A DNA stretch of 64,000 bases. Source: Nautiliaceae bacterium (GTDB taxonomy: Bacteria; Campylobacterota; Campylobacteria; Campylobacterales; Nautiliaceae). The DNA is taken from NCBI GenBank assembly GCA_039831155.1, contig JBDONT010000026.1:1-64000 (forward strand). The letters are read 5' to 3'. Position numbers: made by a program. This document shows, piece by piece, positions 27,001 to 33,000 of the stretch; position 1 is the stretch's first letter, and every line of letters begins with the position of its first letter.

Positions 27001-30000
27001 CGGGTATAAAATAATAGACGCAGACAAAATCAGTAAAGAAGTTTTTGAAGAAAAAAAAGAAAAAATAGAAAAACTCTTCAACACAACCGACAGAAAAGAG
27101 ATTAGAAAAATAGTATTTAACGACAAAGAAAAGCTAAAATTGCTAGAAGATATAATCCTGCCGGAAGTAAAAAAAAGAGTGCTTTTACTTTGTGAAAAAT
27201 ACGAAAAAGACAATGTGGCATATTTTGTGGATTTACCTTTGTATTTTGAAAAACAAAACTACAACTTCAATAAAGTCCTAGTAGTATACGCCCCAAAAGA
27301 GATTCAAATTCAAAGAGTAATAAAAAGAGACAACGTAACGGAAAAAGACGCTAAAGCCATTTTAAACAATCAAATGGATATTGAAAAGAAAAAAGAGTTA
27401 GCCGATTTTGTAATAGACAATTCAAAAGATTTAAAACATCTTCAAAAAGAGATAGAAAAGTTTTTAAAAATGATATAATAAAAAAAAGGAGTTAAAATGA
27501 AAACAAATCAAATAATCGCAGAATTTCCTCTGGCAAACACAAAAGAAGGAAAAATTACCGTATCTCATATACAAGAACCTTACGGAGAAAACTCAAAACC
27601 GGTTGTAAGTATAGGAATTTCTCTAAACGGAGACGAAAACAATCCTGACTGGAAAGCTCATATTCCGTATGAAAATATAGACGACGTAATAGCGGCTCTA
27701 AAAGCTGCAAAAGAAAAATTTAAAAACTAATTTTTCTTTATTTTCGCAAAGAAAAAACCCGAGTAAGCGTCTTTTGGTAAAATCCTAACACTTTTGCTTA
27801 CATCGGGATGAAACTCTTTATCTTCCCATTTCGTAAGACCGTTTTGAATATTCTCAATAGGCAGTTTAACATCCATAATTTCCGCGTTTTCATACTTTTT
27901 AAGTAAAAAATCCACACTCTCTTCATTTTCTTCGGGAGAAAACGTACAAGTGGCAAATATCATCTCACCTCCCGGTTTTAAAGCCTCAAAAGCCGAAATT
28001 ATAAGCTCTTTTTGAAGCTTTGCAAAACGTCTGACTCTTTTTAAATTCCACCACGTGATACCTTCGTTAAAATCTATATGGGCTTCACTACTGCAAGGAG
28101 CGTCCAAAAACACCCTATCAAACATCTCTCCGGTGGCTTTATAAACAAAACGACCGTCTTTATTGTAAGTTTGGATATTTTTTGCACCGTGTTCTTTGAA
28201 GTTTCTTTTCATTCTAAAAAACCTACCTTTATCCGGTTCTACGGCACTGACTTTTCTTGCTATTTCACTAAAAATCAGACTCTTTCCACCGGGAGCCGCC
28301 GCCAAATCCAAAACCCAATCATCCTCTTTTACATCCAATGCCAACGCAGAAATAATAGAAGAGAGGTTTTGAATATAGATTTTATTCGCCGTATAAGTTT
28401 TGGTTTTTGTTATCTTTTTTCTATCTTCCATAGGAAGGGTATAAACCCATTCACTACATTCAACCCTCTTAGGATTAAACCCCTCTTTTCTTAGTTCGTC
28501 AATCGTTTCTAGGGAAGCTTTATGTCTGTTTATTCTAAAAGAAAACTCTTTTTTTTCTTTTAACCCTTCAAGAATTGAAGGATTTATTTTATTTATTCTT
28601 TCAATAAAAATAGCTTCATTGTCTTTTTTCATCTACTCTCCTACAATTTTAAAATTTTAAATATCTCTTTTTGTAAAGGTGCCAGCTCTTCGTTGTTTGT
28701 TATATTTCGATACCAGATATGAAACTGATTTGAAACTTTAAAAAGCCAGTCTATTAACTCCTCGGTAATTTTGTTTTTATCTCTCGCCTCTTGCAAAATA
28801 TCCTCTACAAAATGGGCAAAGATTTGAATTCTTTTTAGTTTTAAAAACCCACTTGCAGATTTTAAATTATGAAACATCCTAAAAAGATCGTTTAAAGATT
28901 CACTATCTTGATAAAGACTCTCTATCGTCAAATCCATATTATCTTCCAAAACATCAAGCAGCATTAAAAACTCTTCGACAATATCACTGTCAAATTCACT
29001 ATACAAATAATCACTTATACCCACTAAATAACCCTATTATAGTCATTAAAATCCATCTTCCAAACTTTTACCCCACAAAACCTATCTCCCTCCGGACATA
29101 TAGGTTTTATATTCTCTTCATATCTTAACGTACAAGGAGGCAAAAACTTTTCAGCAGCCTTTACTCCGGCTTTTTTCAGTTCTTTTACCTGATTGTAAAC
29201 AATATCGAAAATCTCTTCCTGAGCGTTATAACAAAGCCTCATCTGGGCTTTATGAACAAACTCATGAAAATCGTTATGCTCTATAATCTCTATATTATGA
29301 GCGTTTAAAAGTGCATAAGCGGCTTCCCCAAAACCTAATATATCTTTTTGACTTTCAAAAAAATCGTAAGAGTATTCAACTGCTTTTAAATAAAGCTCTT
29401 TTACACTTTCACAAATTTTAGGCATATAAAAGTCTCTTTTATACATATCTTCAAGTTTAGCCCTTATAGCCGGCGAGCGACGGTGTCTTTGATTTTGAGC
29501 GTCGGCACTAAGAGAGAGTTTAACATATGAATTAAAACTCCCTAAAATAGCTTCGTCTAAGTAGATATTGGAAGCTCTTAAAACCCCTGCATAATTTTCG
29601 TTTAACTCAAAATCATAATCCACTATATCGAAAACTTCCACTTTTTTAGTAATGTTTTTTTCTTTTTTTATTTTTTCAATATCTATGGATGGAAAAACAA
29701 CATCCTCTTTTTGAGCAAACTCTATTAAAGGTTTTAGATTTTTATCTATTCTTATCATCTCCTCTTTTAATTTAGATACAAATTCGTGTGCTTCGTTTCT
29801 TGCTTCGGGGATTACTTTTGCTGCGTTAATGTATCTTAAAGCCGTAATAACGTTTATAGTATGGTAAAGATGTGCATTCATTCCAAGCGGCAAAAGATAC
29901 CTTGCAAACTCTTGAGCCTTTTTTTTAGCCTCTTTTTTTTTGAATTTCGGCAGTACCGATTCGATTTTAGGAGTTAATTCATCAATTAGTTTTTCGTAAT

Positions 30001-33000
30001 AAAAAAACATATTCTCATAATATTTTTGCCACTTTTTTTTATCCGCCCCCTTAGGGTAGGTAAAGTTTTCAAGTTTCATTTTGGCGTATCTTTGCGAGAC
30101 TTGTTCGGAATTGTAAAAAGGATGGGAATGTAAAAGTCTCCATATAAGCAATCTGCTCATTCCCTCAATCAAAAACGTAAAATGATAATGCATAAGAGTG
30201 GTATGGTGACCGGCTTTAAAAATGGAATTTAGCAAATCGTTTTTTTTATCCCAGTTGGTAACATAATTAGGAGTTATTATATGTTTACCAAAATAACAGC
30301 TCCTAGCACTTCCGACTGCTATATCGGTAGGGGTGTATTTACTATCTAACGCTTTTACAACCATTAAAATCCTTTATAAAATTCAAAGTAAATAGGCTTT
30401 TTCGCCTTTAAAAAAATAAAATACCTTCCTCTATTTTTATAGATTTTGAAAATTTTAACATTTTGAATAAATTTATCCAAATAAAACTCTTTTTCAAAAC
30501 CAAAAGGCTTTGGAGATTCGTACCTTATAAGAGTGTTTTTATTTTTACTCACATACCAAAAAACATAGGGCTTAGCTATATTATAAAAAGAGTTGCTAGT
30601 TTGCATAAAAACTCTTACAAAATCCCCTCTGTTTTTTATAGTGACGTTATTAGCGTTTATTATATCGTAATAAAGAACCTTTAACGTATCGTTTTTTAAA
30701 GAGTCAAATTTCTTTTGGATGGAGTTTTGAGAGAGTTTTAAAGAAGAAATAAAACTGCTTAAAGCAAAAAAAAGCACCGACAAAATCAAAACGGAAATTA
30801 AAAGCTCTATTAAAGTAAAAGACTTTTTCATTCTAGTCCGTATAAAGTTATGGAGTGATGCTTATCAAAGACTTTTAGCTTAAAAAGAGTAATTTTGTTT
30901 TTATATTCTACCTCTTTTTTTAAAAAAAACTTATCTTTTTTTAAAGACGAAATAACTTTATCGTTTGTAATATTAAAATCCCTTACCATTTCATAAGCGT
31001 TTTTGCCGTCATTAAAAATCCTAACAGTTGCTTTATAAGAAAAATCCCTTCTTTCTTTTGCGTTTGAGACAAAAAAATAAGCACTATTAGTTACGTTTAA
31101 AGCCACTATCGTTACCAAAAACGCTATCGTAACGGCTATAATCGTTTCTATTAAAGTAAAAGATTTCAATAATACCCTTTTTTAGGAGCATAGGAAGTAT
31201 TATAAAAAATTTCTTTGGCTTCTTTTAAAGTTGAAACTTCCTTTTTATAAAGAGGCTTAATAACAAAAATTTTACCGTTACATTTTATAATGGCACTATT
31301 ATAAAAACCGTTTTTTGTTTGAAGGGTATAATTTTTATCCGAAATAAAACGATTATTTTTATAAACATAAATATTTTCGCACTTTTTTTGAGTATAAAAA
31401 AAACTAACACTCAAAAAAGTAACTATCGAAATAATAACAATTACAACTAAAAGTTCTATTAAACTAAATCCTAATTTCCACATTCGCTAAGTCTGATGTC
31501 TCTGTTTTCTCCACTTCCACCCTCTCTACCATCGGCACCTAGTGAAATAATATCTATATTACCGTTATTGTTAACGTAAATATATCTATGCCCCCACGGG
31601 TCTTTTGGAAGTTTTTTGGAATTTAAAAATCCTTTTGTAGGATAGCTTTGATATTTTTGGGGATTTGGATTTTGAATTAAGGCTTTTAATCCTTCTTCCG
31701 TAGTAGGGTAACTCCCCTCTTCAACTTTAAAAGAATCCAAAGCGTTTTTTAAAGATTTCATCTGAATACAAACAAGCTTTTCTTTTGCTTTTTCCCCTTG
31801 AGAGATTAAATTAGGCACAACCAATGAAGCTATAAGCCCTAAAATAACTATAACAATCATAACCTCAATTAAACTAAAAGCCTTTTTCATCTAACTCCTT
31901 TAAAAAAAGGCAAACCGAAAAACTATTTTAACGGTTTGCTTGAGCCTATTGATAATCCGTTACTTCTTACACTAATATAAAATCCGTCTTCCTGGTCTAC
32001 GAATACATACTCTTGAGTCGGATTTCCATTTGAATCTAGTACTTGAGCCAATCCGTTCATTCCGTTTGGATTTAAAATTAAACCGGCACTTCCACTTGAA
32101 GCTGTAGAATTATAACATTTCTCATCTTGATATGAAACTTGAGCTCTATTTACTCTAACTTTACCGTAACAAATTCCTCCTGTAGATTCCAAATTTATAT
32201 AATAATAAGTTCCAGTCATATCCTCATTTGTTAAAGCTTTAGCTTCAACTCCTATTCCGTATCCTCCACTTACTAAGTCGACTATAATACTATTTCTACT
32301 AATTCCGGGTCTTAAAACTACATTTGCTGCTTTCACACCATTTTGATATACATCCAAATGAGACCCGTTTACTTCCCACGTACCACTATCTCCATCTCCA
32401 TTACTCCAAGTACCTCTTAAACTGTTTACATCGCTTGAATTAATATCTATAAATTCAAAACTTAAACTAGTTCCGTCATCTTCCATATAATTGTATCTTT
32501 TATTGACAAACTCTTTTAACATAGATGGAGTAATTTCTTGAGCCGGCACTTGAAGCCCTATTAAAGAGAGTTGATTGTTGTTATAATTAATATAAGATAC
32601 TCCTAACGTACCCGAAAAGAAATAGAAGTTATTATCTCTATCAGTAAAGAAAACGTTATTGTAAACGTTTTTTAATTCTTTAGTATCACTGATATTATAT
32701 AAATTACCCGTTACTTTATACGTAATTTTGTTTGTATCTGTATCAAATGTAAATTCTGCAAAATCCCCTCCCGTTAACGCACCGCGGAATGTTGGAATTG
32801 CACCACTCATTGTAGGATTTGCAGTTTGATACAAATCTTTATCTGTTGAGGTTAAATTTTTTTCAATTCCGTTTACTTTTACTTCAACACTAGTAGAAGT
32901 AGCAAGTTTTTCTTTAAGTTCATCTACTATAGGTAAATTTTGATTTTCATCTATATCTAAACTCGTTACGTTTTTTAAACTACAATTTTCATCACTATAA

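Follow-up and report, generated by a model that had tools for sequence, protein, structure and literature searches.

An open reading frame from a Nautiliaceae bacterium is likely to encode a flavin-dependent thymidylate synthase built from two fused ThyX halves, which depend on each other, divide the roles of the active site between them and pair as a dimer. The gene lies in the window, the 64,000-nucleotide stretch of contig JBDONT010000026.1 that was analysed. By alignment, the losses in the two halves are complementary when mapped on the published three-subunit active site of ThyX, and the product, here called double ThyX, is probably an active enzyme. Its features are as follows.

29024..30364, minus strand: whole tandem double ThyX ORF, 446 aa, ATG start, TAG stop at 29024-29026
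29696..30364, minus strand: N-half, aa 1-223, complete ThyX fold
30206..30208, minus strand: H53, equivalent of T. maritima H53 (alignment to solved ThyX)
30119..30127, minus strand: S80-H81-P82, in the place of the canonical RHR (alignment to solved ThyX)
30086..30097, minus strand: S90-Q91-R92-Y93, kept S.RY dUMP/catalytic loop (T. maritima S88, R90, Y91)
29642..29695, minus strand: linker, aa 224-241 (secondary structure of the AF2 model)
29171..29641, minus strand: C-half, aa 242-398, truncated ThyX domain (Pfam profile positions 58-187)
29480..29497, minus strand: Q290-N-Q-R293-H294-R295, kept Gln and RHR (T. maritima Q75, R78, H79, R80)
29231..29239, minus strand: R376-L-C378, T. maritima R174 equivalent, then the first fixed Cys (profile alignment)
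29027..29170, minus strand: C-terminal tail, aa 399-446, with C411, C423 and C430
29132-29134, 29096-29098 and 29075-29077, minus strand: C411, C423 and C430, respectively

Domain architecture and motifs

The 446-aa protein has the ThyX fold. It matches Pfam PF02511 (Thy1) in two stretches at 127.1 bits (cut-off 24.8). On the DNA these stretches score 95.7 bits (29756-30334) and 38.2 bits (29171-29539), both above the cut-off, and lie in a single open frame. The NCBIfam equivalog TIGR02170 is missed by one bit (86.9 bits against a cut-off of 87.9). Relatives of the protein are named "FAD-dependent thymidylate synthase" by their sources despite that shortfall. Canonical ThyX (T. maritima TM0449, H. 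pylori, M. tuberculosis) is a single domain of about 210-260 aa, whereas here one chain holds two, the second truncated to profile positions 58-187 and followed by a four-cysteine C-terminal tail that the canonical enzyme does not have. The ThyX motif RHRx7S (Myllykallio 2002, as quoted in PMC2826268) is likewise absent from either domain taken singly. The corresponding stretch is S-H-P-x7-S in the N-half and R-H-R-x7-K in the C-half, so the motif is complete only across both halves together.

The N-half retains H53, R71, S90, R92, Y93, E152 and R155. Among 136 representative sequences S90 and R92 are present in all, H53 in 134 and Y93 in 124. Where the RHR arginines would stand, the five commonest residues of column 80 are S (61), A (27), N (17), D (9) and Q (6), with no Arg among them, and column 82 holds P in 100 sequences and R in 6. 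Another arginine, R177 (132/136), aligns to M. tuberculosis H194 and not to any named catalytic Arg; in the predicted dimer it contacts a loop of the partner chain.

The C-half retains Q290, R293 and R295 (each 136/136), H294 (129/136) and R376 (135/136). It has lost the S.RY, the R147 equivalent (now Y350) and the H53 helix. This pattern is kept in all 136 representative clusters examined. Translation of the coordinates verified the motif and cysteine positions, and with the alignments it bears out an earlier note on this DNA, which had described one protein with two Thy1 domains, the first without the RHR arginines but with S.RY, the second with RHR but without S.RY.

The same note had doubted the ThyX character of the second half, for which only the Pfam model spoke. 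A profile built from 64 second halves finds solved ThyX structures (3ge9, E 1.4e-9; 6j61, 2.2e-6; 3gwc, 3e-5) and sets RHR on RHR, including that of C. glutamicum ThyX, which settles the matter. The C-half alone scores 38.7 bits on Pfam Thy1, and all 64 isolated second halves pass the cut-off. These passes, together with the profile matches, exclude a resemblance by chance. In the AF2 model the secondary-structure elements of the C-half follow an order parallel to that of the N-half. Direct comparisons of N-half and C-half profiles conflict (90.3% probability, E 1.5e-6, against 13.9%, E 0.002), and the one at 90.3% registers RHR onto S.RY. Fold searches with the whole model return the N-half only.

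Proposed division of the active site

In published structures three subunits build each canonical ThyX site. The first brings RHR and an R174-type arginine to FAD and dUMP, the second brings the SR-arginine, S88, R90 and Y91 to dUMP, and the third brings the helix with H53, the residue that stacks on flavin and folate (PMC11940539). R78 is described as facing the flavin and the RHR as binding the FAD phosphates. Roles were given to the two halves by sequence alignment together with these descriptions. They suggest that two ThyX domains fused and then split the work: the N-half would keep the dUMP (S.RY) and H53 roles without the FAD/RHR role, and the truncated C-half would keep the FAD/RHR role only. 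Two polypeptides would pair as a pseudo-tetramer in which two sites are complete and two vestigial, the positions of the vestigial ones being H81, P82, K303, E305 and Y350. Each complete site would consist of a C-half, an N-half and the N-half of the other chain, with one FAD per polypeptide. The enzyme would convert dUMP to dTMP with methylene-tetrahydrofolate, as the only route to dTMP in the cell.

Alternatively, the second half might be a degenerate scaffold, with catalysis by the N-halves of four polypeptides arranged as in the canonical homotetramer. Of the two ThyX domains the N-half is the better conserved (95.7 bits, against 38.2 for the C-half), and it alone is detected by single-sequence searches of the PDB. 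However, across the family that half is without both arginines of the RHR (R in only 6 of 136 at column 82), the motif that in published ThyX binds the FAD phosphates and whose R78 faces the flavin. The C-half, for its part, retains exactly Q..RHR and R376 (129-136 of 136) with all else lost. Because it keeps precisely these residues, mere drift as a scaffold is unlikely, and we consider this arrangement scarcely probable.

Predicted homodimer

A first AF2 run with 23 close relatives was poor (pLDDT 62.5) and was replaced by a 136-sequence alignment. A homodimer is predicted with an ipSAE of 0.95 (best control 0.00) and 312-322 contacts. Of 30 proteins solved as pairs of one chain, 20 attained this mark, and of 23 solved as single chains one did, but the dimer job included FAD and the calibration did not, and the score may reflect memory of solved ThyX tetramers. 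The dimer runs share at least 98% of contacts, with a partner pLDDT of at least 91. Residues 55-59 of one chain lie on N85 of the other, and the RHR residues 293-295 are outside the predicted inter-chain interface.

The position of the RHR would also suit a fused protein that works as a monomer, its own N-half and C-half forming one site unpaired, and the fusion itself does unite the RHR donor with the S.RY donor. The H53 helix, however, must come from a third domain, and the C-half is without one; both the predicted pairing and the placing of residues 55-59 against the partner's N85 argue against a single chain. We regard a working monomer as very unlikely. Under the dimer reading, the canonical tetramer with four sites is replaced by a predicted dimer with two, and half as many sites and flavins per ThyX domain would be expected.

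The four-cysteine tail

C23, C378, C411, C423 and C430 are invariant among 23 Nautiliaceae-like sequences. In the representatives C378, C411 and C430 are each kept in 135 of 136 and C423 in 134 of 136, in agreement with the conservation of the tail and its four cysteines first reported for this protein. The four are spaced C-x32-C-x11-C-x6-C and include no CxxC pair. In the AF2 model residues 401-446 have a block-mean pLDDT of 91-96, and residues 410, 419 and 424-428 fall within the predicted dimer interface. An ESM Atlas feature search with residues 366-446 gave no usable match. C378 stands two residues past the active-site arginine R376.

The four fixed cysteines would link the tail to the helix that bears R376. 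They would most likely hold a metal, either zinc or an iron-sulfur cluster. We know of no studied ThyX with a conserved four-cysteine element adjoining the active site. A more specific reading, which we think unlikely, is that an Fe-S cluster relays electrons from ferredoxin or flavodoxin to FAD and makes the thymidylate synthase independent of NAD(P)H. If true, it would address an old puzzle, namely what lets the flavin of ThyX be reduced efficiently in cells. No conserved redox partner recurs beside the gene among 112 neighbours at 56 loci. The neighbours that do repeat are limited to lineages, namely NrdR (3), a dGTPase-like HD protein (4), a class V aminotransferase (3) and RuvC (2).

Genome context

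The genome is a 1.53 Mb draft in 43 contigs, 96.7% complete. The two stretches of double ThyX are its only Thy1 matches, and ThyA, thymidine kinase (PF00265) and DHFR have no matches in it. Its lone weak dNK match is the dTMP kinase (TIGR00041, 143.5 bits). These absences are not proof, as the draft is in 43 contigs. They nevertheless agree with the view that the genome has no candidate thymidylate synthase besides double ThyX. Thymidine salvage had been left as a possibility, but no genes for it were found. ThyA is also missing from all 30 Nautiliaceae genomes, and in five of five other genomes tested double ThyX is the sole Thy1 match, again without ThyA. DHFR is usually missing from organisms that have ThyX only.

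The protein might instead be a ThyX-derived enzyme with another substrate, a regulator or a pseudo-enzyme, with dTMP coming from an unrecognised enzyme or from uptake. A precedent for another substrate is PolB (4p5a/4p5b), which methylates UMP and dUMP at C5 in polyoxin biosynthesis. PolB, however, is a single domain that serves a secondary-metabolite pathway, whereas double ThyX is the only candidate here for thymidylate synthesis. Every residue named for dUMP binding is retained across its two halves. Neither the genome itself (no ThyA, other Thy1, TK or dNK) nor the five further ones (no ThyA or other Thy1) offers a substitute, a dTMP kinase is present, and DHFR is missing, as is the rule in ThyX-only organisms. 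Such a change of function is highly improbable, and a thymidylate synthase of divided halves is the reading that we prefer.

Distribution

At least 595 species genomes, spread over many phyla, show the complementary-loss pattern. It is thus not the peculiarity of Nautiliaceae, set against an ordinary background, that had been proposed. Nor is the fused form fixed in every genome of that family: double ThyX was matched in 28 of 30, the two without a match being 91% (G012) and 86% (G015) complete, and in one (G022) the gene is split in two pieces. The earlier count of 9 among 201 Campylobacterota genomes was reproduced with a C-half query, which matched 6 of 6 members of the family besides the window's genome, one of 11 genomes in a second family and the one genome of a third. 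Thy1 is present in 198 of the 201, and among the matches listed it mostly forms a single stretch within an open frame of 204-265 aa.

In a FastTree phylogeny of 71 locus proteins the 11 compact Campylobacterota forms make one clade. Six rows with mispicked ORFs were excluded (L033, L047, L057, L064, L066, L082), and the branches of L015, L034 and L058 are very long. The tree is midpoint-rooted and so allows no conclusion on donor or direction.

Relationship to known ThyX proteins

Work on ThyX, an essential enzyme that is also a drug target, has to our knowledge dealt almost exclusively with homotetramers made of identical subunits. Leduc et al. are said to have mixed differently inactivated H. 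pylori ThyX subunits in 2004 and to have restored activity, the sites being shared between subunits. Those heterotetramers were reportedly an engineered mixture, whereas double ThyX would be a natural fusion that exploits the same principle. A chlamydial ThyX of about 529 aa was reportedly studied biochemically by Griffin in 2005.

The possibility of an earlier description was partly confirmed. An uncharacterised domain-duplicated ThyX was noted in Chloroflexi and "a few other species" by Valas and Bourne in 2009 (PMC3224940), and it very probably belongs to the same family. The Chloroflexota loci L062 and L065 are among the relatives found here. The passages of that paper on ThyX hold no residue analysis, complementary loss, cysteine tail or distribution, and the family, present in no fewer than 595 species genomes, extends far beyond the few species it mentions. 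Searches of the open literature for the fused form yielded only this 2009 remark, and no account of the complementary loss or the Cys4 tail came to light. Annotation by RHRx7S filters, as in PMC2826268, or by the TIGR02170 cut-off would overlook or under-call the family.

If the roles are divided as proposed, a homo-oligomer has become a fused hetero-pair whose halves each retain only what is missing from the other. It would offer a clean natural test of the three-subunit model of the active site and an example of gene fusion locking in subfunctionalisation.

Long ThyX-like proteins also occur in phages. The GenBank phage collection gave single-domain matches to the N-half only; they come from 6 records, and in none does the match span 80% of the query. 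By Foldseek the whole model aligns to the 491-aa thymidylate synthase of Microcystis phage LMM01 over 503 columns (TMq 0.65, E 2.3e-13), with an identity of 14-15% to such long proteins, and to a 461-aa viral protein with a TMq of 0.63.

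A single ORF with two ThyX domains

The tandem double ThyX is encoded by one ORF, and the Pfam Thy1 match to its 446-residue product (127.1 bits) falls in two stretches that share the same open frame, each scoring above the 24.8-bit cut-off.

29024-30364, (-): tandem double ThyX, single ORF, ATG start, 446 aa
29756-30334, (-): first Thy1 stretch, 95.7 bits, profile positions 8-185 (DNA-level profile match)
29171-29539, (-): second Thy1 stretch, 38.2 bits, profile positions 58-187 (DNA-level profile match)

Translation of these coordinates places S80-H81-P82 and S90-Q91-R92-Y93 in the N-terminal half (residues 1-223), and Q290-N-Q-R293-H294-R295, R376-L-C378, C411, C423 and C430 in the C-terminal half (residues 242-398) and the tail that follows it. 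The ORF and its motifs are thus as described in the earlier note. The NCBIfam thyX equivalog model gives 86.9 bits, narrowly below its cut-off of 87.9, and the protein fails the definition of ThyX by a motif within one domain. Fold and profile place it in the ThyX superfamily, and tandem, subfunctionalised ThyX is the most fitting name for it.

The second half is homologous to ThyX

A single-sequence search of the PDB matched only the first half, and the earlier note had doubted that the second is a real ThyX domain. A profile built from the second halves of 64 relatives, taken from fetched loci, finds the solved ThyX of C. glutamicum (3ge9/3fnn, E 1.4e-9), T. thermophilus Thy1 (6j61, E 2.2e-6) and M. 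tuberculosis ThyX (3gwc, E 3e-5). In the profile alignment the RHR of the second halves falls on the canonical RHR, and R376 aligns with the arginine in the R....A..EI helix of canonical ThyX. All 64 second halves pass Pfam Thy1 when scanned alone (best E 1.2e-25), which, together with the PDB matches, answers the doubt. When the two halves were compared directly, profile against profile, the result was equivocal: one run gave 90.3% probability (E 1.5e-6), but with RHR registered on S.RY, and the other gave 13.9% (E 0.002). We therefore base the homology of the second half on the PDB profile matches and Pfam Thy1.

An AlphaFold2 model calculated from an alignment of 136 diverse relatives is confident over the full length (pLDDT 96.7, pTM 0.94). 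In the modelled C-terminal half the elements follow one another as they do in the N-terminal half (strand 276-284, helix 285-291, strand 299-301, long helix 316-343, helix 345-351, strand 356-365, and helices 366-376 and 383-398), and the N-terminal segment that bears helices 12-59 has no counterpart there.

Conservation across relatives

HMMER, run exhaustively against 1.84 billion cluster representatives, returned 1052 matches at E ≤ 0.001, 156 of them at E ≤ 1e-30; most of the top 150 measure 430-560 aa and cover both halves. Conservation was scored over the query and the 135 listed matches of 420-620 aa (n = 136), the other 15 being fragments or longer fusions. S90, R92, E152, R155, Q290, R293 and R295 are invariant in all 136, and H53 (134), R71 (134), H294 (129), R376 (135), C378 (135), C411 (135), C423 (134) and C430 (135) nearly so. 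The five commonest residues at column 80 are S (61), A (27), N (17), D (9) and Q (6), with no arginine among these five; column 82 is proline in 100 sequences and arginine in six. Since this pattern is kept across the 136 sequences, it is a property of a large family and does not reflect local degeneration.

Complementary loss of active-site residues

Roles were assigned to residues through alignments to solved ThyX proteins and their published descriptions. According to a review (PMC6514825), active site 1 of solved ThyX is made by three subunits. In M. tuberculosis, subunit A binds the FAD phosphates and isoalloxazine through its RHR (R95-R97) and dUMP through R95 and R199; subunit B binds FAD through S71 and R190; and subunit C binds dUMP through R87, the Q103 backbone, S105, R107 and Y108, the lid residue. 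Papers on PBCV-1 ThyX, where one monomer supplies Gln75 and Arg182 and another Ser88/Gln89 (PMC3498832), and on T. maritima ThyX, where H53 lies on "monomer-3" and R78 faces flavin N1/O2 (PMC11940539), agree with a three-subunit site.

By alignment, the N-terminal half retains the subunit-C set (R71, S90, R92, Y93) and the H53/T55 part of the subunit-B set, plus R155 (T. maritima R147). The subunit-A set is gone from it: S80 and P82 replace both RHR arginines, and A182 occupies the position of M. tuberculosis R199. The C-terminal half retains exactly the subunit-A set (Q290, R293, H294, R295, R376); it has L285 for the SR-arginine, K303/E305/D306 for S.RY and Y350 for R147, and lacks the H53 helix. 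From these alignments we infer that a D2 tetramer of two N-type and two C-type domains would have two sites where all three contributions meet and two vestigial sites with none, and would bind one flavin per chain. R177 does not fit neatly into this scheme; it is near-invariant (132 of 136) yet aligns with M. tuberculosis H194, and in the predicted dimer it contacts residues 262-267 of the other chain.

Leduc et al. in 2004 reportedly found that differently inactivated ThyX subunits regain activity when mixed, the principle that the tandem protein would use. The mechanistic reading is directly testable.

Predicted dimer

Two copies of the protein were predicted together with two FAD in three runs. 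The homodimer scored an ipSAE of 0.95 (0.94-0.95 over the runs) versus 0.00 for the best control, with 312-322 contacts, at least 98% run-to-run agreement and a pLDDT of 91 or more for the partner. Among the solved proteins used for calibration, 20 of 30 that are pairs of one chain reached the ipSAE mark, as did 1 of 23 that are single chains; the present job differs from the calibration in using its own alignment and including a ligand. N85 and residues 87-90 of one chain are predicted to lie against residues 55-59 of the other, and so reproduce the H53-N85/Y91 contact published for T. maritima ThyX (PMC11940539). Tail residues 424-428 also lie within the predicted interface. The score may come from the model's memory of solved ThyX tetramers, and the prediction supports, rather than shows, a pseudo-tetramer of two paired polypeptides.

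The cysteine tail

C378 lies two residues past R376, and C411, C423 and C430 lie within a 48-residue tail past the ThyX domain, of which residues 401-446 are modelled with block-mean pLDDT of 91-96. These cysteines are spaced C-x32-C-x11-C-x6-C, in CP and CG contexts and without a CxxC pair. We take this set to look at least as much like iron-sulfur ligands as like a zinc site. The four cysteines probably form a metal site of some kind. That they hold an Fe-S cluster is less likely than not, and that such a cluster supplies electrons to the flavin is improbable. A scan of 112 neighbours at 56 loci found no conserved ferredoxin-like gene.

The only thymidylate synthase candidate

The window's genome, a draft of 1.53 Mb in 43 contigs (96.7% complete), gave no match to ThyA, thymidine kinase or DHFR; the only deoxynucleoside-kinase match, a weak one, is the dTMP kinase (TIGR00041, 143.5 bits). 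The double ThyX is also the only Thy1 match, with no ThyA found, in each of the five other genomes tested: two from other families of Campylobacterota, a Myxococcaceae bacterium (L080), an Acidobacteriota bacterium (L026) and Candidatus Chrysopegis kryptomonas (L052). This bears out the earlier claim that it is the only candidate. In bacteria as different as these it alone is a candidate for an essential step, and it is therefore very likely active.

The gene had also been called fixed in Nautiliaceae. It was found in 28 of 30 family genomes (14 of the 15 that are at least 90% complete), several matches being broken at contig ends, but not in all, and ThyA was found in none of the 30; G012 (91% complete) and G015 (86%) matched neither long ThyX nor ThyA, probably through assembly gaps. 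In G022, a 99%-complete family genome of five contigs, the gene lies in two overlapping pieces (C1:679742-681081; query 2-328 and 321-446), through either a frameshift or a sequencing error.

Distribution and literature

A query with the C-terminal half reproduced the earlier count of 9 matches among 201 sampled Campylobacterota genomes: the window's own, all six others of its family, one of 11 in family f7 and the one of f9. Thy1 is present in 198 of the 201, mostly, among the matches listed, as a single stretch in frames of 204-265 aa. The Nautiliaceae-specific framing gives way in a scan of one genome per species, with more than 597 matching stretches, at least 595 confirmed by tblastn, across many phyla. 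The best 80 of these include Nautiliales, Sulfurimonadaceae, Sulfuricurvum, Arcobacter MAGs, Bacteroidota/Ignavibacteria/Kapaibacteria, Myxococcota, Planctomycetota, Acidobacteriota, Elusimicrobiota, Sumerlaeota, Spirochaetota, Chloroflexota, Verrucomicrobiota, Gemmatimonadales, Bdellovibrionota, Omnitrophota and others.

Proteins from Campylobacterota form a compact subtype in which the second Thy1 stretch begins at profile position 58 or 59. In the 521-aa protein of genome G226 that stretch spans positions 1-190. Atlas clusters of 463-514 aa bear Thy1, two with phage as their commonest label. The 491-aa thymidylate synthase of Microcystis phage LMM01 aligned over the full model (TMq 0.65, 15% identity), and the six matches in the GenBank phage collection are all single-domain. 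The chlamydial ThyX, of about 529 aa and a possible member of the family, has reportedly been assayed.

The existence of a domain-duplicated, uncharacterised ThyX in Chloroflexi is already noted in print (Valas and Bourne 2009, PMC3224940), and the double form is very widespread; the window's protein is therefore an ordinary representative of a family that is under-described. The feature itself is real, and the protein almost certainly has a function. The open literature searched gave no description of the complementary loss, the predicted halving of sites or the cysteine tail, and the proposed arrangement, with two live sites, two vestigial ones, one flavin for each chain and a Cys4 set beside the active site, is apparently new there.

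Neighbouring genes and variant relatives

One-base overlaps couple the thyX ORF to its neighbour on either side (window 30362-30366 and 29022-29026).

30364-31890, (-): four pseudopilin-like ORFs, same strand as thyX and preceding it
27727-28632, (-): NOL1/NOP2/Sun-family RNA cytosine-C5 methyltransferase, 301 aa, just downstream of the Hpt ORF

The upstream pseudopilin-like ORF (30364-30831), with weak ComGD/ComGC-type matches, ends in a stop that overlaps the ATG of thyX (TAATG), and the TAG of thyX in turn shares a base with the GTG of a 127-aa ORF (28641-29024) that itself has weak CheA matches and whose 127-aa counterpart at locus L003 matches Pfam Hpt. The top NCBIfam rows for the methyltransferase, nop2p and RsmB-like, are all under cut-off. 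In some lineages the neighbours are genes of dNTP metabolism: NrdR (zinc ribbon and ATP-cone) adjoins long thyX in Elusimicrobia (L030, L048, L076), and a dGTPase-like HD + HD_assoc protein does so in Sulfurimonadaceae/Sulfuricurvum (L007, L009, L013, L015).

Three relatives carry an intein (PF14890): P0123 (748 aa), P0171 (840 aa) and P0208 (821 aa). In the two that were aligned, P0123 and P0171, it lies between the equivalents of N85 and S86, four residues ahead of the catalytic-loop serine S90 of the N-terminal half. A close relative of 500 aa, P0040 (80% identity over aligned columns, 67% by BLASTP), has a G/E/R-rich insertion of about 50 residues in its C-terminal half, after the equivalent of about residue 322 (alignment columns about 327-380).
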